DNA of 59,247 bases from Eubacteriales bacterium (lineage in GTDB: Bacteria > Bacillota > Clostridia > Oscillospirales > CAG-272), in contig JAZSJS010000030.1 in the NCBI GenBank assembly GCA_045534435.1, positions 1 to 59,247 on the forward strand, given 5' to 3'. The notes beneath the pieces were generated by a model. The model made no database searches. It saw only the letters and a program-made list of their open reading frames with translations, and had not been told where the DNA came from. Below are positions 22,611-31,624 of the stretch, in pieces. The translations under genes were made by a program, and so were the position numbers. How positions within the stretch are numbered: the stretch's first letter is position 1; the number at the start of each line of letters is the position of its first letter.

Positions 22611-25600
22611 ATGAAACGGAAATATCAGTGGACTGCCGTGATCGCGGCGGTACTTTTGGCGAGTATTCTGCTTTCTGCAGTGCTTTCCGCGCAAGCAACA
22701 GAGGATATCAATCATCACCTTCAATATGGAAATCCGACCGACCGAGAGCCGGAGGAGTTGTCTGCATTGGACTTTTTTGAACTGCTTTTTGACGTGACAC
22801 CGAGCGAAGCGGAACGGACCTATTTGGAGCAGCTCTCCTCGCTGACCTTGACGTACAGTGCCACGAGTGCGGTGCTCGGAGACGGCATCTCCGCCTTTTT
22901 TGACAAGGAAACCAATTATCTCAAGGTGGTTGTCAAGTCCTATACATATACCGCCGAGAACGGAGAAACGGTGGAATGGATTCCGCAAAGCGCGCGGATC
23001 GAGCTCAACGGAACGCTTTTTGAGCACTCGTTTGCACATGAGGATGGATTCTACACGGCCTCCTTTTCCGAAATTTACCATTCGGGAGACTTTGACGTGG
23101 AGGTGACCTTTGCCTGGGAGGAAGAGGTGTCTGAGGAGGTTGCCGAGGCGCTTCTCAACGATGCTTACCGTGCGGGAAGGGAAGCCCTGGATGTGATTCT
23201 TGAGGACGAGGCAAAGCAGGCGGACTATGACGCACGATTGGCAGCATATGAGGCATATCAGGAATATCTCCGAAAGAAAAAAGAATTTGACGACTATACG
23301 GTGGCACTTCGGTTTCACACGGAGACCGCTCTGCCTGCTTACCGCGATTATCAGGCCTCTGTGTCCTCTTATCAAGCCGACACTGAGGCATATGAGGAAT
23401 GGCAACGCTACTTTAACGTGATCAGCAGCGGAGCCACCTTTGAGGATTACGTAAAATATCAGAATTATCTGTTGCAGATCGATCGCATAAAGCAAAGGTT
23501 GAACGTGCTTGAGGTGCTTTTCCTCAAGGACAGCAACAACTGGCATTTTTATGATTCCTTGATGGGAGGCTCGGTGACGGCGGCGCTGCTCGGCAACAAG
23601 GACAAGCTGGATGCTGCCGGCTACAAGAACGAGGTGCAGGCAGCAGAGGAATCGACGGTCGCGCTACGCACCCTGATGAAGGGATACAGCGATCTTCGTG
23701 ATGCCCAATATGCCTCCGAGCATGACAAAACCGTTGCGCTTTACCGTTATTATTTGGCAAATTACACCGCGCTCTGTAACAACTTCGTCAAGCTGACGGA
23801 TGCGCTTTATACATTTTTGTGCAGTCCGTCGATCAGTAGCGGAATCAAACTTCAAGGAGGCGAGAAGCGCTTTGCACACTATGAGCAATTCGTCGCTCTG
23901 TTGTACACGACGAGTACGGCGCTTGACGACGGAGTAAAGAGACCCGAGCAGTGGGGATATGCCGCCGGGAATTATACCGCGTTTTTGGATGCAGAGATTT
24001 TGGTGAGCGACAACAACAAAGCAACGCCTGCCGAGGCGGATATCCCGGCGGCAGAGGTTCCTTTTGTGGATTGGATGGATGCACCGCCCTCACTTCCGCA
24101 GATCATGAAAAAACCGGTTTTGGAGAACTATTTGAGCGACGCGGTCAAAGCATATCTTGCCGAATACGGAAAAAATTCCTTGGATCAAGAGCCCAAGGCT
24201 CCCAAGGTCGTGGAGGATCCGAACAAGGGAACGGTTCCCGCGTCTGCGGAGCATCCCGGCACAGCACCCACACCCACCCAAATCGACACTCGATTGCGCA
24301 ATCTGGCGAGCGAGGTGAGAGCGGGGCGCTTGCGGGAGCGTTCTTTGACAGATTCCACACCACTCCTCCGCCTGGTGAAGAGAGTGGAAAAATTGGTCTC
24401 TTCGGTTGAGAACAAGCGCGTGATCATCTTCTATTCCTATGACCGTCAAACGGTTTTGGACCGTCAGGTTTTGGAATATGGACAGAGCTTTGCCTATCAA
24501 GGTCCCGAATCTGTCTACACGAGAGAGCCGAGCGACTCTCATACCTATAAGTGGCACGGTTGGTTTTTGGCGGACGGAGAAACGCGAGCCGAAATGGTGG
24601 CAACCTCCGATCTGTCGCTTTACCCACAATACGAGGAAAAGATCCGTTTTTATCCTGTGACCTGGATCTTGGATGGTGTTTCCAGCACTGCCGAGGTGAA
24701 ATACGGAACCTTTCCGAAATGTCCTTTTCAAACAAACAAAGCACCCGATGAAAGGTATACCTACACCTTTTCCGGCTGGCGAGCCGAGGGGGCAGAGGAG
24801 CTCGGTGTGAACATGGTGACGGGTGCCGTGACCTATGTCGGCTCGATCACGCGGACGCCCAGGCCCTATACCGTGACATGGGATCTCGGAGACCGTACGG
24901 AAAGCGTCAGCGTGCCGTACGGAGAGCGCCCTGCTTACAGCGGTGTGCCGCAGAGAGCGCCCGATAAATATACATATAATTTCCTTGGATGGGACAAGCC
25001 GCTGGATTGGGTAAGTGGAGACGTGACTTACGTAGCGGAATGGGAAAAGACGGGATTGGCGACCTCGATTGATGGCACGACGATGGAGATCCTCCACACC
25101 GAGAGCGAAGTGACCGTTGTTGCTACACATTCGCAGGTGGATATTCGTGAAGCGGCAAAGCTGGCACAGGCGAGTGGAAAATCGCTGTCAGTACAGTGGG
25201 ATCAGTTCCGTTTGACCGTGGAAAATGCCGAACTCGGACGGCTGACGGCAGGGGGCTGCCGCCGCGTGCATTTGATCGAAAGACGCGAGGCGGCTGACGG
25301 CATCGTTTATACCTTTGGTTATTTCAACAGTGCGGGACAAGAGCAAAGCATCGATATTTCCGCAACGCTTTGCGGCGTGACGTTGGAAAATGAATCTCCC
25401 TTGGTCGGATACCTTTTGGAGAACGGTGAGTGGCGCTCTGTCGGTACGGAATCGATTGCGGTGAAGGGCGGTGCAAGCTTCCGCTTGAACCGAACTTATC
25501 AAATCGAATTTTTGAATGCGGACAAGTGCAACATCGCAAGCTTCCCGGAGCAGATTGCTGTTGGCACAAGAGTTGACCTGCGCCTGGGATGCGTTTTCGG

Positions 25601-26165
25601 CTACGAGATCTCGGCGGCAAGAGTCACGATGGAGGACGGAACAGAGGTCGCGGTGGAGGGACTTTCCTTCCTGATGCCGAGCGGAAACGTCAGCGTGGAG
25701 CTGACCGTGACGCCGATTCTCTATCACGTCACCTTCGTTTCTGACGGTGTTGTGATCGCCGAGGGAGACTATCTGCTCGGAGAAAAAATCACGCTGCCTG
25801 CAGATCCCACCAAACCCTCCGACGGTGTTTACGACTATACCTTCGGCGGTTGGTCGCAGGACATTACCGTTGCCTACGGGGATGATCGCAATCCCATTTA
25901 TGAGGCGGTCTTTTCGGCAACACCCATAGCGGTTTATCAGACCAAGCTTTCGGTGATCGACATCATTTTGTTGATCGTTCTGCCGATTGTGGGTGGATTG
26001 GCGCTGGTTGGAGGAGGTGTTTTGATCACGCTCCGTGTGATCAAAAAGAAAAAGGTCTCCGCATCCGTCGCAATCGAACCCGAGAGCGAGGTTGAGGAAG
26101 CTGCCGATACAAAGGCAGACAAGTCCGAGGCCTTCGACGAGGAAACCTCCGACGGCGAAGATTAA
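22611..26165 (+). CDS. Large secreted, C-terminally membrane-anchored surface protein with InlB-type B repeats
   Basis: 1184 aa. Signal peptide ending SAQA. Tyr/Glu-rich helical region. At least four Y-x-F/W-x-GW repeat cores (YKWHGW, YTFSGW, YNFLGW, YTFGGW). Single C-terminal TM helix, then KKKK and an acidic tail. Confidence 0.75.
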   Translation: MKRKYQWTAVIAAVLLASILLSAVLSAQATEDINHHLQYGNPTDREPEELSALDFFELLFDVTPSEAERTYLEQLSSLTLTYSATSAVLGDGISAFFDKETNYLKVVVKSYTYTAENGETVEWIPQSARIELNGTLFEHSFAHEDGFYTASFSEIYHSGDFDVEVTFAWEEEVSEEVAEALLNDAYRAGREALDVILEDEAKQADYDARLAAYEAYQEYLRKKKEFDDYTVALRFHTETALPAYRDYQASVSSYQADTEAYEEWQRYFNVISSGATFEDYVKYQNYLLQIDRIKQRLNVLEVLFLKDSNNWHFYDSLMGGSVTAALLGNKDKLDAAGYKNEVQAAEESTVALRTLMKGYSDLRDAQYASEHDKTVALYRYYLANYTALCNNFVKLTDALYTFLCSPSISSGIKLQGGEKRFAHYEQFVALLYTTSTALDDGVKRPEQWGYAAGNYTAFLDAEILVSDNNKATPAEADIPAAEVPFVDWMDAPPSLPQIMKKPVLENYLSDAVKAYLAEYGKNSLDQEPKAPKVVEDPNKGTVPASAEHPGTAPTPTQIDTRLRNLASEVRAGRLRERSLTDSTPLLRLVKRVEKLVSSVENKRVIIFYSYDRQTVLDRQVLEYGQSFAYQGPESVYTREPSDSHTYKWHGWFLADGETRAEMVATSDLSLYPQYEEKIRFYPVTWILDGVSSTAEVKYGTFPKCPFQTNKAPDERYTYTFSGWRAEGAEELGVNMVTGAVTYVGSITRTPRPYTVTWDLGDRTESVSVPYGERPAYSGVPQRAPDKYTYNFLGWDKPLDWVSGDVTYVAEWEKTGLATSIDGTTMEILHTESEVTVVATHSQVDIREAAKLAQASGKSLSVQWDQFRLTVENAELGRLTAGGCRRVHLIERREAADGIVYTFGYFNSAGQEQSIDISATLCGVTLENESPLVGYLLENGEWRSVGTESIAVKGGASFRLNRTYQIEFLNADKCNIASFPEQIAVGTRVDLRLGCVFGYEISAARVTMEDGTEVAVEGLSFLMPSGNVSVELTVTPILYHVTFVSDGVVIAEGDYLLGEKITLPADPTKPSDGVYDYTFGGWSQDITVAYGDDRNPIYEAVFSATPIAVYQTKLSVIDIILLIVLPIVGGLALVGGGVLITLRVIKKKKVSASVAIEPESEVEEAADTKADKSEAFDEETSDGED

Positions 26166-29373: not shown

Positions 29374-29431
29374 GATGATGGGAGGATCCTTTCTCAATGA
29401 TAGGGGACTGTTGACGGGCAACAGTCCCTGT

Positions 29432-29787
29432 GACAGCTTCGTCTGTAAGCCGGGTTCTGTCTTGAACGGTCATCAATCTGCGCGACTTGTCACCAAGCCG
29501 CTTCGGAGAAGATTCTCCGTGCCACCTCGGGCGCTGTGTCGGACCGACGTCCCTTGAGGTGTTGCTTCGGATAGGGTTTACAGCGGACCTATGTTACCAT
29601 AGGAACGGGTGAGCTCTTACCTCGCCTTTCCATCCTTACCGCTTGCGCGGCGGTTTCTTTCTGTTGCACTTTCCCGACGGTTACCCGTGGCTGACGTTAT
29701 CAGCTATCCTGTCCTGTGAAGCCCGGACTTTCCTCACGGTAATACCTTGCGGCAACATACCGCGCGACCGTCCGGCGAAGCTGTACT
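29432..29787 (-). ncRNA. rnpB: RNase P RNA
   Basis: On the minus strand: GAGGAAAGTCCGGGC (CR-I) and ACAGAACCCGGCTTA (CR-V). The P1 helix is CAGCTTCG / CGAAGCTG. A perfect promoter lies upstream, and the hairpin GGGACTGTTGCCCGTCAACAGTCCC sits at the 3' end. Confidence 0.92.
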
Positions 29788-29848: not shown

Positions 29849-30622
29849 TCAAAGCTGCTTGCGGATCTTTTCCAGGGTTGCCTTTTCCAGTCGGGAGACC
29901 TGTGCCTGGGAGATCCCGATCTCGTCTGCGATCTCCATCTGGGTTTTATTTCGGAAAAAGCGAAGGTGGATGATCTTTCGCTCACGCTCACTCAGACGGG
30001 CAAGCGCCTCCTTGAGTACGATATTCTCCAACCAGGTCTCGTCGCCGCCCGAGGTATCGGCAAGCTGATCCATCAGATAGAGCGCGTCGCCGTTATCGTT
30101 GTAGACCGGCTCGTAGAGCGAGATCGGCTCAACGATCGCCTCCATGGCGCGCATCACGGCATCCTTTTTCTCGCCCAGACGAGCGGCGATCTCCTCGACG
30201 GTCGGCTCACGCTCGTTTTTCGCGATCAGCTCCTCGCGTGCCTGCAGAGAGCGGTAGGCAAGATCGCGCATGGAGCGGCTGATGCGAATGGCGGTGTTGT
30301 CTCTCAGATAGCGTCGGATCTCTCCGATGATCATGGGGACGGCATAGGTCGAGAATTTGACGTCCATTTCGACGTTGAAATTGTCAACCGCCTTCACCAA
30401 GCCGATGCAGCCCACCTGAAAGAGGTCGTCCATGTTTTCCCGCCGCCCCGTAAAGCGCTGAATGATCGACAAAACCAGACGCAGATTTCCGCTGATCAGC
30501 TCGCTTCGCGCATTTTCGTCACCCGCTCTTGCTCGGAGCAGAAGCTCCTGCTTCTCTGCATCACTCAGAACCTTCAGCTTTGAGGTGTTCACCCCGCATA
30601 TTTCCACTTTGTTATAATACAT
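29849..30622 (-). CDS. sigG: Sporulation sigma factor SigG (forespore, late)
   Basis: 257 aa. Near-colinear with recalled B. subtilis SigG: NKVEICGVNTSKL, GNLRLVLSIIQRF, DDLFQVGCIGL, KFSTYAVPMIIGEIRRYLRDN, GISQAQVSRLEK. Confidence 0.85.
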   Translation of the reverse strand: MYYNKVEICGVNTSKLKVLSDAEKQELLLRARAGDENARSELISGNLRLVLSIIQRFTGRRENMDDLFQVGCIGLVKAVDNFNVEMDVKFSTYAVPMIIGEIRRYLRDNTAIRISRSMRDLAYRSLQAREELIAKNEREPTVEEIAARLGEKKDAVMRAMEAIVEPISLYEPVYNDNGDALYLMDQLADTSGGDETWLENIVLKEALARLSERERKIIHLRFFRNKTQMEIADEIGISQAQVSRLEKATLEKIRKQL

Positions 30623-30777
30623 CCGCAATATCCCCGTTTTTGTTTTCAAGAAAAGTATTGCCGTGTCGCGCAACAGGTTATTCAAGCCAGAAAATGGGAG
30701 GCGGACAGGGAAGCGCCGGATTGGAAAAGGAAAACGGAAAAATATTGTTCAAAAATAAAATATTTTTCAAAAAGCCC

Positions 30778-30806
30778 TTGCAATTTTGAAAGTTTTATGA
30801 TATAAT
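30778..30806 (+). promoter_or_regulatory. Sigma-A type promoter for tRNA-Ser
   Basis: TTGCAA, 17 nt, TATAAT, with an extended -10 TG. About 38 nt upstream of the mature tRNA 5' end. Confidence 0.7.
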
Positions 30807-30843: not shown

Positions 30844-30934
30844 GGAGAAGTACTCAAGAGGTCGAAGAGGCGTGACTCGAAATCTCGTAGGACGTTAACG
30901 CGTCGCGTGGGTTCAAATCCCACCTTCTCCGCCA
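30844..30934 (+). tRNA. tRNA-Ser (anticodon CGA), class II with long variable arm, CCA encoded
   Basis: Acceptor GGAGAAG/CTTCTCC, T-arm GTGGG TTCAAAT CCCAC, anticodon loop CTCGAAA, long variable arm GACG..CGTC, discriminator G plus CCA. One T-T mismatch in the anticodon stem. Confidence 0.9.
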
Positions 30935-30936
30935 AC

Positions 30937-30980
30937 AAAAACAGAACATTTGTCTACCGAAAAATGTTCTGTTTTTGTTT
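30937..30980 (+). terminator. Intrinsic terminator after tRNA-Ser
   Basis: AACAGAACATTT / AAATGTTCTGTT 12-bp stem with an 11-nt loop, followed by TTTGTTT. Confidence 0.8.
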
Positions 30981-31170
30981 ATCCAAGCCGCAGGCTTGGT
31001 ATATCATCGCCGCGCGAAGCGCGGTGCATATCATCAGCCCCAAAGGGGCTGTATCTCATCACGCGCCAGCGTGTATCTTTCCTGCGGCTTGATGATATAC
31101 AACACTTCGTGTTGATGATATACCGCAATAACTTGCGGATGATATACACGCCTTCGGCGTGATTGGGATG
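30981..31170. repeat. Head-to-head 10-mer iteron array interleaved with short unrelated GC-rich hairpins
   Basis: GTATATCATC-type copies start at 30999, 31026 and 31051 (0-1 mismatch). Its reverse complement GATGATATAC occurs perfectly at 31091, 31114 and 31138. Spacing is 23-27 nt. Hairpins with 4-7-bp stems and 3-4-nt loops fill each interval. Confidence 0.8.
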
Positions 31171-31188
31171 CGAGATGGAGGAAAGCTC

Positions 31189-31217
31189 TTGACTAGCTTT
31201 GCTCAATGTGATATAAT
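31189..31217 (+). promoter_or_regulatory. Sigma-A type promoter for the small acidic protein gene
   Basis: TTGACT, 17 nt, TATAAT, with an extended -10 TG. Immediately downstream of the iteron/hairpin array. Confidence 0.7.
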
Positions 31218-31261: not shown

Positions 31262-31624
31262 ATGACTGAATATGATGATCCGATTGTAGGTGCAATAAAA
31301 GCAGCGGTTTCTTTTCCCGTCGATGTTGAATGTGAAGGATATCCTGATGTGATTTTTAACATCATATTTGAAATGCATCCTGATCAATCAATGACGGAGA
31401 AGAGTGTTTCTGCCTTAGAAGGTTACATGAACGCATATAACAGAAAACATTTTTTCAGGCCAATCCACTATGTTTCGGATATTGATAGTTTGCCAGAGGC
31501 ATCCTCCGTTTTTTCTGTTTGTATTCATGTGGATTTTGGCAATGCCAATCCCAAAGCATTGATTAACGCCGTTAAAGCAATTTCAGACACAAATCTCCCA
31601 ATTTATCGCCTTGTATTAGAATGA
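31262..31624 (+). CDS. Small acidic cytoplasmic protein, unknown function
   Basis: 120 aa, with GAGAGG 7 nt before the ATG at 31262. The ATG at 31220 falls inside the promoter/TSS region and was rejected. AT-richer than the surrounding core genes. No family recognised. Confidence 0.55.
   Translation: MTEYDDPIVGAIKAAVSFPVDVECEGYPDVIFNIIFEMHPDQSMTEKSVSALEGYMNAYNRKHFFRPIHYVSDIDSLPEASSVFSVCIHVDFGNANPKALINAVKAISDTNLPIYRLVLE

Follow-up and report, generated by a model that had tools for sequence, protein, structure and literature searches.

The 190-base array that lies behind a tRNA-Ser gene in the window (the whole stretch of DNA analysed, 59,247 nucleotides) belongs to a repeat family that is widespread in gut Clostridia and had so far been only half described. 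Its closest known relative is Gut-1 (RF01706), an orphan Rfam motif that represents one arm of a sister class. The array has two arms, each of them sense on the opposite strand, and its folding is strand-specific. We tentatively regard the family as a REP/BIME/REPIN-like repetitive extragenic element of gut Oscillospirales, forming an extended 'Gut-1' class.

Architecture of the array and its flanks

The array is composed of six copies of a 10-mer (GTATATCATC/GATGATATAC), three facing three, together with seven GC hairpins and an 11-nt long-range complement (Table 1). A preliminary description of this DNA had reported three copies of GTATATCATC, the first perfect and the other two carrying one mismatch each, which face three perfect copies of GATGATATAC at a spacing of 23-27 nt, as well as a perfect complementarity between the segments that we call A and A'; all of this held at the positions listed in Table 1. 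Its seven short GC hairpins could also be read directly from the sequence and were predicted by folding, but its statement that they are completely different in sequence did not stand, since the stems fall into about 15-20 families, which other copies of the element carry at matching positions. At one mismatch or fewer, the 10-mer matches seven times in the whole 59-kb window against 1.8 expected, a count reached in 0/100 shuffles; the window contains one tRNA gene and one array. We identified the building block as a unit made of ATC, a GC-rich hairpin closed by C-G with a G..A loop, and GTATATC. Four units make up the terminator-proximal arm, which lies on the + strand; the second arm, which lies on the - strand, contains three and in addition an inverted, truncated copy of the first hairpin. 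Relative to the linker, the outer ends (ATC...GAT) are placed identically. The inner end of the left arm, a hairpin followed by GTRYAT, is kept across the family.

Table 1. Features of the array and its surroundings in the window
Feature	Position	Strand	Evidence or remark
tRNA-Ser(CGA), upstream anchor	30844-30934	+	ARAGORN; Rfam tRNA 52 bits
Putative intrinsic terminator: A-tract, hairpin with 21-nt arms, T-tract; T-run abuts the element	30934-30982	+	inverted repeat, folds
ATC, outer end of the left arm, last 3 nt of a linker	30981-30983	+	sequence; ATC...GAT ends common to the family
Hairpin hpA (CCAAGCC-GCA-GGCTTGG)	30983-30999	+	local stem 100% paired in 34 copies, 3 covarying pairs
Segment A, 5' arm and loop of hpA, complement of A'	30984-30994	+	perfect over 11 nt; family covariation including loop positions
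Left arm, linkers GTATATCATC (30999, perfect), GCATATCATC (31026, one mismatch), GTATCTCATC (31051, one mismatch)	30999-31060	sense +	sequence; strand from loop and wobble statistics
Left-arm hairpins hp1 (GAA loop) and hp2 (AAA loop)	31009-31025; 31036-31050	+	
hp3 (ACGC-GCCA-GCGT), then partial linker GTATCTTT; inner end of the left arm	31061-31080	+	
Segment A' (CCTGCGGCTTG), truncated inverted copy of hpA at the centre	31081-31091	+	inverted repeat; family covariation
Right arm, three perfect GATGATATAC linkers (31091, 31114, 31138)	31091-31163	sense -	
Right-arm hairpins hp4, hp5 and hp6	31101-31113; 31124-31137; 31148-31160		- strand loops GAA, GTTA, GAA
Terminal GAT of the right arm	31161-31163		
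Conserved right flank (GATTGGGATGCGAGA...) and outward promoter	31161-31217	+	
120-aa ORF	31262-31624	+	without Pfam family; neighbour, outside the element

The terminator that precedes the array was recognised by eye, as a hairpin (30934-30979) followed by TTTTTGTTT, and did not appear in a consensus terminator scan. The linkers of the array units are A/U-rich, U making up only 4 of their 10 positions; of the units, the terminator scan listed hp3 alone, weakly. On the other side, the promoter TTGACT-17-TATAAT, already noticed at 31189-31217, was confirmed by a scan that gave 11/12 matches with a TG. The right flank is conserved in five other loci (L035, L039, L082, L106 and L116) and in strain contigs. 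In another subfamily the end of the element is itself the -35 (TTGATT); the right end of the element points a -35-like TTGAT(T/G) outward, and an outward -35 stands at the element end in at least 34 of 81 copies. Orthologues of the 120-aa ORF (74-84% identity) are accompanied by no array or by a 1.5-unit remnant only. The chromosomal context of the array comprises SigG, RNase P RNA and the tRNA.

A dispersed family behind terminators

Whether the array is unique to this locus had been left open. A pattern scan refuted uniqueness, giving at least 120 loci where chance would produce about 8 (596 Gb x 2 strands x 7 gap lengths / 4^20), and the matches listed come nearly all from Clostridia/Oscillospirales gut MAGs. 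Of the 129 clusters among the matches listed, 45 have the layout '---+++' as found, and none has '+++---'. Multiple arrays are present per contig or genome, and several linker classes (GTGATATT, ATGAAATA, ATGAAGC and GATTCCATAC) display one architecture, some of them sharing genomes. Metagenome contigs end in arrays, so that assemblies break there.

In 76 of the 84 oriented copies among the matches listed, the element begins at the T-run of an intrinsic terminator, with a junction of that T-run and ATCC. The link with a tRNA terminator, first seen at this locus, proved to be a property of the family: a co-oriented tRNA, ending 49-64 nt before the first 10-mer, is present in 42 of 84 copies, and among the matches listed at least half of the terminators abutted by copies belong to tRNA genes, representing 23 anticodons. 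Short tRNA 3'-end fragments lie upstream of several further copies; where such fragments are present, the array follows the displaced (old) fragment and not a regenerated tRNA. Bystander tRNA-operon ends in the array loci have no array in 15 cases out of 17. In convergent-gene contexts (L012, L074 and L114), each of the two arms is bordered by a terminator T-tract, in a mirror-image arrangement. The T-run with ATC is in register with a linker, and the terminator looks like a unit 0. A scan of viral contigs gave seven matches; their inspection, which covered all but L124 and L127, identified at least four as 12-15-nt tandem repeats and one (L126) as a real array behind tRNA-Arg. A BLAST search of the array against plasmids and phages returned no match, and a full-text literature search for the 10-mer returned chance primers and sequences only.

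Opposite strand bias of the two arms

The 256-nt region has folding z-scores of -8.4 (+ strand RNA), -9.1 (- strand RNA) and -7.2 (DNA); DNA nearest-neighbour energies are equal on both strands and hence do not tell the folding strand apart. Selection on the folding of the small hairpins, suggested beforehand from their common architecture, was borne out across the family, in which 92% of cells pair and changes on both sides of a stem number 100 against 24.8 in shuffles, with 0/500 shuffles as high. Hairpins run end to end in 294 of 314 spacers; their stems vary, with 272 distinct spacers among 441 units, and the linker is the conserved part. The helix between A and A', raised earlier as an alternative fold, is the best-supported long-range pairing, with 34 both-side changes against 8.8 in shuffles (0/500). 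Compensatory change between facing 10-mers amounts to one compensated cell where 4.4 are expected, a conserved C.U mismatch is present in 21 of 34 copies, and the 10-mer is kept at 10/10 positions in more than 100 species. Thus, in the absence of covariation between the arms, the linkers are conserved as sequence and not as a helix. An inter-arm rod of stacked four-way junctions is the minimum-free-energy fold; we rejected it as the selected structure because linker variants are never compensated.

Loops and wobbles distinguish the two strands. On the GTATATCATC strand, loops of the form G..A outnumber those of the form T..C by 115 to 5, with C-G as the closing pair in 76%, and G.T wobbles exceed A.C wobbles (28 vs 9). 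GNRA-type tetraloops are common on the sense strand, and G.U pairs are rare (about 2% of pairs). The two arms being sense on opposite strands, a single structured RNA that extends over both of them, one of the possibilities listed in the preliminary description, is disfavoured. Two readings of the linker were also dropped: a K-turn or C/D box at UGAUGA, which has neither a CUGA partner nor G.A geometry, and a promoter within the 10-mer, where the candidate hexamers have no T at position 6.

A sister class represented in Rfam by Gut-1

The preliminary description had missed the nearest described relative, Rfam Gut-1. At the gathering threshold, Rfam finds only the tRNA and RNase P in the window. 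A permissive search returned noise (C/D-box snoRNAs on UGAUGA, miRNAs on the terminator) along with weak symmetric matches to the Gut-1 model, one per arm, of 16.4 bits (30996-31059, -) and 14.1 bits (31067-31150, +), with E = 0.67-4.8 and a threshold of 50. Related arrays in L015, L051 and L068 score 50.7-74 bits against Gut-1, above the threshold, which the L051 array reaches with ATATCAT linkers. True Gut-1 matches share genomes with GATGATATAC arrays, sometimes at a distance of 0.2-1 kb.

Gut-1 was found in gut Clostridia-type metagenome sequence and rated a likely RNA (Weinberg et al. 2010, PMC2864571). Like the arms in the window, it consists of three or four variable GC hairpins and a constant short A/T-rich linker (GUGAAAU/GUGAUAUU), whose core TGAWAT (UGAWAU) is also present in GATGATATAC. 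The flanks of the published alignment display the same layout, namely a tRNA or gene terminator, a first hairpin, an arm, a central segment and an inverted arm (PMC2864571), and the central segment is complementary to the start of the element (UUAUAUUCGCC/GGCGAAUAUAA), as A' is to A in the window. This wider architecture is also seen in L015 and L052, where the order of the arms is reversed relative to the window. The two classes differ in their linker, a 10-mer in the window and a 7-8-mer in Gut-1, and in orientation, the sense strands converging in the window whereas they diverge in Gut-1. The Rfam model covers one arm only, labelled sRNA, and a search of the literature on Gut-1 after 2010 found nothing.

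Turnover of the arrays and neighbouring genes

Hairpin units differ between strains whose downstream protein is 100% identical and whose flanks are nearly so, and in one hairpin the loop is flipped from AAA to TTT. Long arrays are tandem duplications. Stem sharing reaches 0.5 between arrays of the same genome and 0.11 between genomes (n = 6). Synteny breaks at the element: a SigG-anchored comparison of the orthologous locus breaks exactly at the tRNA and the array. Neither a clean filled-versus-empty orthologous pair nor a target-site duplication was demonstrated.

The genes downstream of arrays are ordinary and mutually unrelated. About 17-20 arrays are followed, after 60-92 nt, by an Avd-like PF05635 gene, whose nucleotide-level conservation of 0.8-0.9 ends at its stop codon. 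The PF05635 family has been described from insertions, both within rRNA genes and between operon genes (PMC3936711; bioRxiv 10.1101/2024.02.27.582315). Neither a transposase nor a RAYT nor an integrase was detected near the copies, and the 25 Pfam families listed for 132 ORFs up to 5 kb downstream include no integrase or recombinase family. A crude lambda Int query gave no match in about 1 Mb of array loci, and across about 1 Mb of array-flanking DNA, tblastn with an approximate IS200 TnpA query matched L029 alone, a locus due to chance. There is no second copy of the tRNA 3' end in the 59-kb window, and there are no rep or par genes near the array.

Possible nature of the element

A REP/BIME/REPIN-like nature is our preferred reading, held with some reserve. 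It is suggested by the dispersed family, its fixed position, single-strand folding, strand specificity, linker classes, fast turnover, outward -35 and association with PF05635. The units would act as folded single strands, each arm on its own strand, and single-stranded DNA would be the likelier form, considering that both strands are used and that the mini-hairpins bear the C(GNA)G signature. The invariant linker could be the recognition sequence of a factor, specific for a hairpin plus its flank, that would be encoded elsewhere in the genome. Propagation and homogenisation would take place at the DNA level, through unit duplication and the exchange of units between arrays, and the element would lodge in terminator T-tracts and hitch-hike with the small PF05635 gene. 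The effect on the host may be largely neutral apart from two side effects: the next gene would gain a -35, and read-through transcription would meet additional hairpins. That the searches near the copies found no transposase, RAYT or integrase argues against this reading, as does the bias towards tRNA terminators, which a selfish repeat does not obviously predict; moreover, classical REPs keep their hairpin and vary little, whereas here the hairpin varies. A host function could account equally well for the fact that more than 100 species share the 4+3 architecture and a covarying A:A' helix.

The main rival, which we consider rather unlikely, is a cis-acting bidirectional transcription barrier or insulator in which the sense-arm hairpins would be back-up terminators, pause sites or RNase entry sites. 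An RNA polymerase reading through the tRNA terminator, or coming from the opposite side, would transcribe one arm in sense, yielding GC hairpins in series whose GNA/GNRA loops are stable and which alternate with A/U-rich linkers, and the next promoter or gene would be shielded. The element indeed follows immediately on an intrinsic terminator, in most cases that of a highly expressed tRNA operon, and comes just before a promoter; the terminator resembles a unit 0 in linker register, both arms abut T-tracts in the three convergent contexts cited above, and one arm is sense for either direction in the convergent (window) and divergent (Gut-1) classes alike. However, the units have no U-tract, and termination explains neither why all ten positions of the 10-mer are conserved in more than 100 species nor why several linker classes coexist. 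The distribution is also patchy, as seen at the bystander tRNA-operon ends and at orthologous genes without an array, the unit content is hypervariable between strains, and the association with PF05635 is left unexplained.

Also unlikely, in our estimate, is that the arrays, Gut-1 included, are the cis sites of an undescribed single-stranded DNA mobility or recombination system that travels with Avd-like PF05635 genes. The units, defined here as a GNA-loop hairpin with an ATATCAY linker, would be recognised strand-specifically and cut at one fixed point of the linker, between GTATATC and ATC, and the element would lodge in terminator T-tracts beside tRNA genes. If true, this would provide the first mechanistic context for PF05635, which is also found in rRNA intervening sequences.

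It is doubtful that the array works as double-stranded DNA, with the 10-mers, three in either orientation, as sites for a regulator of the adjacent promoter, a nucleoid-associated protein or a topoisomerase and the palindromes as spacers or as mini-cruciforms extruded by supercoiling. The 10-mer is invariant, spaced by 23-27 bp and dyad-symmetric, and the array stands at about -35 to -220 of a promoter, its end being the -35 at many loci. DNA mini-hairpins of the C(GNA)G type can be extruded by supercoiling, for example at phage N4 early promoters. Binding to the duplex cannot, however, account for the bias of the loops or the excess of G.T over A.C, nor for compensatory changes in stems of 4-7 bp; the unrelatedness of the downstream genes and the presence of several linker classes in one genome also speak against it, and we know of no candidate protein.

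We consider it very unlikely that the element is a trans- or cis-acting structured ncRNA over both arms, in which A:A' and hpA would be alternative folds and the linkers would be bound by protein or RNA. Its hairpins and A:A' covary strongly, the folding energy is very low, tetraloops of the GNRA type are common on the sense strand, and Gut-1 was itself rated a likely RNA by Weinberg et al. 2010 (PMC2864571). Yet no single transcript contains both arms in their favoured form; there is no promoter between the terminator and the array, none facing in from the right and no terminator after it, and a putative strong terminator stands immediately upstream; G.U accounts for about 2% of pairs, the loops are not conserved and can flip, and no Rfam family reaches the threshold over the array. 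Highly improbable and already largely refuted are arm-type recombinase sites, an att remnant of a tRNA-integrating island, an iteron origin or a centromere, some of which the preliminary description had put forward: the array adjoins a tRNA 3' end, a classical integration target, its 10-bp repeats are grouped into two sets of inverted orientation, as in the P and P' arms of attP, and tRNA 3' fragments and small insertions occur at several loci, but no integrase family is among the 25 Pfam families listed for the 132 downstream ORFs, the crude lambda Int query matched nothing in about 1 Mb of array loci, the window has a single tRNA 3' end, rep or par genes are absent nearby, plasmids and phages gave no match, the array follows the old tRNA fragment, and several copies exist per genome.

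Gut-1, present in Rfam since 2010 without organism, context or function, is one arm of a two-armed element tied to tRNA-operon terminators in Oscillospirales and Lachnospirales, of which several linker classes exist. The strand statistics argue against its assumed single-RNA nature and point to REP/BIME-like or attC-like single-stranded DNA biology, which has not previously been described in Clostridia. The arrays are hypervariable strain markers, mark synteny breakpoints and donate promoter elements to their neighbours, and their recurrent link with PF05635 offers a handle on a long-standing orphan family.

Comparison with known systems

A CRISPR array remains excluded, as proposed at the outset, by a repeat of 10 nt, palindromic spacers of 9-21 nt and inverted halves, with no cas among the 25 families listed. 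The integron attC site resembles the family in keeping structure without sequence, in its inverted short boxes and in acting as strand-specifically folded single-stranded DNA. The sequence contains no R/L boxes (GTTRRRY), and no integrase family is among those listed, so that the earlier exclusion of attC was upheld; attC is moreover one site of 57-141 nt, in a cassette array with attI, whereas the family has tandem units of 23-27 nt and neither cassettes nor attI. Pneumococcal BOX elements, and MITEs or IS ends with an outward -35, are likewise modular, with internal units in variable number, strongly folded, intergenic and able to donate promoter elements to a neighbouring gene. BOX modules, however, are conserved in sequence and have no alternation of hairpin and linker, and by comparison with MITEs and IS ends the terminal inverted repeat demonstrated here is no longer than ATC/GAT.

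The dismissal of REP/BIME elements in the preliminary description was too quick, since by position and layout they are the nearest functional analogue. REP/BIME/REPIN elements and the present family are both extragenic, behind genes or terminators; both are built from palindromes that form hairpins, carry a short conserved flank and occur as inverted pairs or clusters; and both have several classes per genome, a variable copy number and concerted evolution. The mobilising enzyme of REP-type elements, where known, is encoded elsewhere. To our knowledge, a strong preference for tRNA terminators has not been described for REP elements. The two also differ in that REPs conserve the palindrome, with a GTAG foot, whereas here the stems vary and the 10-nt linker is constant, and in their hosts, proteobacteria for REP/BIME/REPIN and Clostridia for the family described here.

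Architecture and distribution of the array

We showed that the array at positions 30981-31170 belongs to a dispersed, terminator-linked, two-armed family. In the window, the 10-nt linker GTATATCATC and its reverse complement GATGATATAC occupy the positions and the facing orientation reported in the preliminary description, and the 59-kb window holds seven matches at ≤1 mismatch, where 1.8 are expected and 0 of 100 shuffles reach seven. Its other structural claims, a short GC hairpin filling each interval and a perfect complement between segments A and A', were borne out, the former by both sequence and folding. The array region folds much more stably than its shuffles, with z = -8.4 and -9.1 for RNA of the two strands and -7.2 for DNA. 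The window contains a single tRNA gene and a single array of this type.

Features of the window and of compared loci (L numbers)
Feature	Position	Strand	Basis or remark
Linker GTATATCATC, perfect	30999	+	sequence
Linker GTATATCATC, one mismatch each	31026, 31051	+	sequence
Linker GATGATATAC, all perfect	31091, 31114, 31138		sequence
A / A', perfect complement	30984-30994 with 31081-31091		inverted-repeat match
18-nt tandem repeat AAAATATTGTTCAAAAAT, 1.9 copies	30739-30773		directly 5' of tRNA-Ser promoter
tRNA-Ser promoter, TTGCAA-17-TATAAT	30778-30806
tRNA-Ser(CGA)	30844-30934		upstream of array
Terminator, long A-tract/hairpin/T-tract			between tRNA-Ser and array
Near-consensus promoter	31189-31217		downstream of array
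120-aa ORF without Pfam family			downstream of array
RNase P RNA class A	29430-29783	-	234.8 bits; adjoins SigG
Sporulation sigma factor SigG	29849-30685	-
1184-aa ORF	22611-26165	+	one Listeria-Bacteroides repeat domain (Flg_new), no other Pfam family
PF05635 gene 60-92 nt after array	L004, L013, L022, L025, L035, L042, L043, L077, L081, L093, L094, L100, L103, L106, L117
GATTTATGCAAGAGTTCGAATTCATACGCAAAA module	L007, L023, L026, L036, L048, L088, L098, L099, L105, L108		right flank
Linker class switch, GATGATATAC to GATTCCATAC	L030, 2406-2520		along one array
Alternating linkers GTATATCATC / GATATCAT	L051, 1-110

Whether the array was unique, tRNA-linked or dispersed had been set down as a point to check. 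A scan for pairs of 10-mers separated by 12-18 nt, in one genome of each species, returned at least 120 loci, against about 8 expected by chance according to our own arithmetic (596 Gb x 2 strands x 7 gap lengths / 4^20). The matches listed are nearly all from Clostridia, Oscillospiraceae, Acutalibacteraceae or 'Eubacteriales' gut MAGs, and the plasmid and phage collections searched gave no array match. Among the 129 clusters of 10-mers in the matches listed, three facing three ('---+++') is the commonest layout (45), near variants of it make up most of the others, and the opposite layout ('+++---') never occurs. The oriented copies have an asymmetric plan in common: the terminator T-run leads through ATC into the first hairpin (hpA), followed by three steps of linker and hairpin (the third hairpin being hp3) and a partial linker, GTATnT; then come A', the reverse complement of the 5' arm and loop of hpA, three units of linker and hairpin in the opposite orientation, and GAT. 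As ATC and GAT at the two outer ends correspond to the last and the first three bases of the linker, respectively, each arm is a whole number of ATC-hairpin-GTATATC units.

Genomic position

The junction of a T-run with AT(C)C is found in 76 of the 84 oriented copies listed, and in 42 of these 84 the first 10-mer follows a co-oriented tRNA gene at a distance of 49-64 nt, with 23 different anticodons in all. Several further arrays are preceded by a tRNA 3' fragment alone; there, an intact tRNA is either missing or located another 200-300 nt 5', which indicates that insertions into the tRNA took place later. An insert of 200-280 nt separates the intact tRNA from a duplicated 3' fragment, itself followed by the terminator and array, at L126, L114, L055, L039, L037 (832), L026 and L014, with an inverted T-arm copy in the L126 insert and a similar T-arm-like stretch in that of L114; L044 has the fragment and no intact tRNA. 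Such loci resemble very small integrated elements, or rearrangements, at tRNA 3' ends. In the window, the tRNA 3' end is present in a single copy. Within the array loci, 15 of 17 tRNA-operon ends without a GATGATATAC-type array have no array whatever, so the element is no fixed component of tRNA operons.

At the other end, the arrays carry outward -35 elements: the last hairpin plus GATT makes TTGATT, with TAnnnT 16-18 nt on, in at least 34 of 81 copies, while in the window's subfamily the promoter is carried by the conserved flank, ∼25 nt further on. Between convergent genes (L012, L074, L114) the right arm adjoins the terminator of the other gene, in mirror image. A conserved module of ∼30 nt, GATTTATGCAAGAGTTCGAATTCATACGCAAAA, which includes a T-loop-like GTTCGAAT, lies 3' of the array in ∼10 loci behind different tRNAs. 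The motif ACAAAnnnGAATTTG, found at the downstream transcript start just past the -10 (L020, L056, L058, L068, L084, L092, L126), could be an operator or leader element.

Selection on folding and strand polarity

Both the small hairpins and the A:A' complement are under selection, as the preliminary description had proposed for the hairpins. End-to-end hairpins fill 294 of 314 spacers between 10-mers. In a 34-copy alignment compared with 500 shuffles, the local hairpins are 92% paired and show 100 double-change cells against 24.8, with 0/500 shuffles as high. The long-range A:A' helix covaries too: it is 92% paired (27-50% in slid controls) with 34 double changes against 8.8, again 0/500 as high, and complementarity is retained in at least seven sequence variants, loop positions included. 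The minimum-free-energy fold also predicts linker-linker helices, as a rod of stacked four-way junctions. We ruled this rod out as a selected helix, since a single double change was seen against 4.4 expected (490-499 of 500 shuffles at least as high). Position-specific linker variants are uncompensated (for example, GTATCTCATC at site 3 in 27/50 copies, GATGATATGC at site 5 in 18/50); hence, linkers are conserved as sequence and not as helix.

The two arms have opposite sense strands. When all units are read on the strand with GTATATCATC, 245 distinct hairpins show 115 G..A loops against 5 of the complementary T..C form, a C-G closing pair in 76%, and G.T over A.C by 28 to 9; triloops (GAA, GCA, GTA) account for 59%, and tetraloops are mostly GNRA or GNNA. 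This bias is present in both arms: + is the 'sense' strand of the left arm and - that of the right, and the window follows the rule (GCA, GAA, AAA and GCCA on +; GAA, GTTA and GAA on -). Loop flips do happen, as in the second hairpin after hpA (hp2), whose AAA is TTT in an otherwise near-identical strain, so it is selection that maintains the bias. The favoured form of both arms cannot come from one transcript. C(GNA)G triloops are a hallmark of very stable DNA mini-hairpins, and GNRA loops suit RNA too; the energy model predicts no difference between the strands.

Turnover and neighbouring genes

The arrays turn over rapidly at the DNA level. In metagenome contigs with an identical downstream protein the flanks are nearly identical and whole hairpin units differ, four or more of them between the window and L129 or L146. 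The hairpins had been described as completely different in sequence; pooled across units, they fall into about 15-20 stem families and are drawn from a common pool. Stem sharing is 0.5 within a genome against 0.11 between genomes (n = 6), and long arrays that run in one direction have arisen by tandem duplication of unit pairs. The orthologue of the downstream gene at 84% identity retains 1.5 units and three at 74-82% retain none. In a relative with a 93%-identical SigG (L132-L134), the tRNA and array mark the exact point where synteny is lost: the RNase P side is syntenic and the tRNA/array side is replaced by NAD synthase. Contigs L128-L131, which encode the identical 120-aa protein, are all < 1.3 kb and stop 150-290 nt 5' of the gene, either inside the array or at its edge, suggesting that arrays break short-read assemblies.

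The arrays are linked to PF05635 (23S rRNA-IVS, an Avd-like four-helix bundle). A 115-aa member is encoded 60-92 nt 3' of ∼17-20 arrays behind different tRNAs, and its protein is 85-92% identical across different species. The nucleotide conservation of the gene (0.8-0.9) falls to background exactly at the stop codon, which gives array, promoter and gene the look of a single module. In four loci (L041, L068, L118, L146) a second subtype is encoded a few hundred bases 5' of the array, and in L009 it directly precedes a partial array. This family, which is without assigned function, has been described from insertions in rRNA genes and from sites between cas operon genes (PMC3936711; bioRxiv 10.1101/2024.02.27.582315). 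PF05635 aside, the 132 ORFs within 5 kb 3' of arrays are mutually unrelated; no integrase or transposase is among the 25 Pfam families listed for them, and tblastn with IS200 TnpA and lambda Int as crude queries gave nothing relevant at the array loci.

Interpretation

We tentatively favour a repetitive extragenic element of the REP/BIME/REPIN kind, a reading that the preliminary description had dismissed. Such an element would spread and be homogenised at the DNA level and would lodge in terminator T-tracts, and a factor whose gene lies elsewhere would recognise its units in folded, single-stranded form. The main rival, a bidirectional transcription barrier, fits the position of the array and its two-strand design; it does not account for the invariance of the linker, the existence of linker classes, the patchy occurrence or the PF05635 link, and we consider it rather unlikely. 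An array of protein-binding sites in double-stranded DNA is improbable, being contradicted by the strand bias and by the stem covariation. Slightly more doubtful still is a single sRNA, the structured non-coding transcript envisaged earlier, given the opposite sense strands of the arms, the absence of a promoter and the terminator upstream. Readings as att or arm site, origin or centromere are very improbable.

Comparison with Gut-1

The element is clearly of the same kind as Gut-1 (RF01706), although it fails the threshold of that model. The search of Rfam proposed earlier, run permissively, gave weak matches to Gut-1, to which both window arms align in mirror orientation with 16.4 and 14.1 bits, values below the threshold of 50 and not significant by themselves; the element itself is not in Rfam. 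In the published alignment with flanks, a tRNA or gene terminator precedes a first hairpin, three units of GUGAUAUU and hairpin, a segment at the centre that is complementary to the beginning (UUAUAUUCGCC / GGCGAAUAUAA) and 3-4 units of AAUAUCAC and hairpin (PMC2864571, supplement). This is the architecture of the window family. The sense strands diverge from the centre in Gut-1-type arrays and converge in ours; hence, the Rfam model represents one arm of a sister class. We found no literature on Gut-1 after its original description (PMC2864571). True Gut-1 matches occur in genomes with GATGATATAC arrays (L015, with 74 bits, L051 and L068). Further linker classes follow the same plan: ATGAAATA, and GTGATATT behind tRNA-Cys, in L015; ATGAAGC/GCTTCAT behind tRNA-Thr in L052 (Lachnospiraceae); and GATTCCATAC in L030. 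The sense-strand form nTnTCAY is common to all classes. New in this analysis are the full two-armed architecture, the linkage to tRNA terminators, the strain-level hypervariability and the PF05635 association, together with strand statistics that call into question the assumption that elements of this kind act as RNA.
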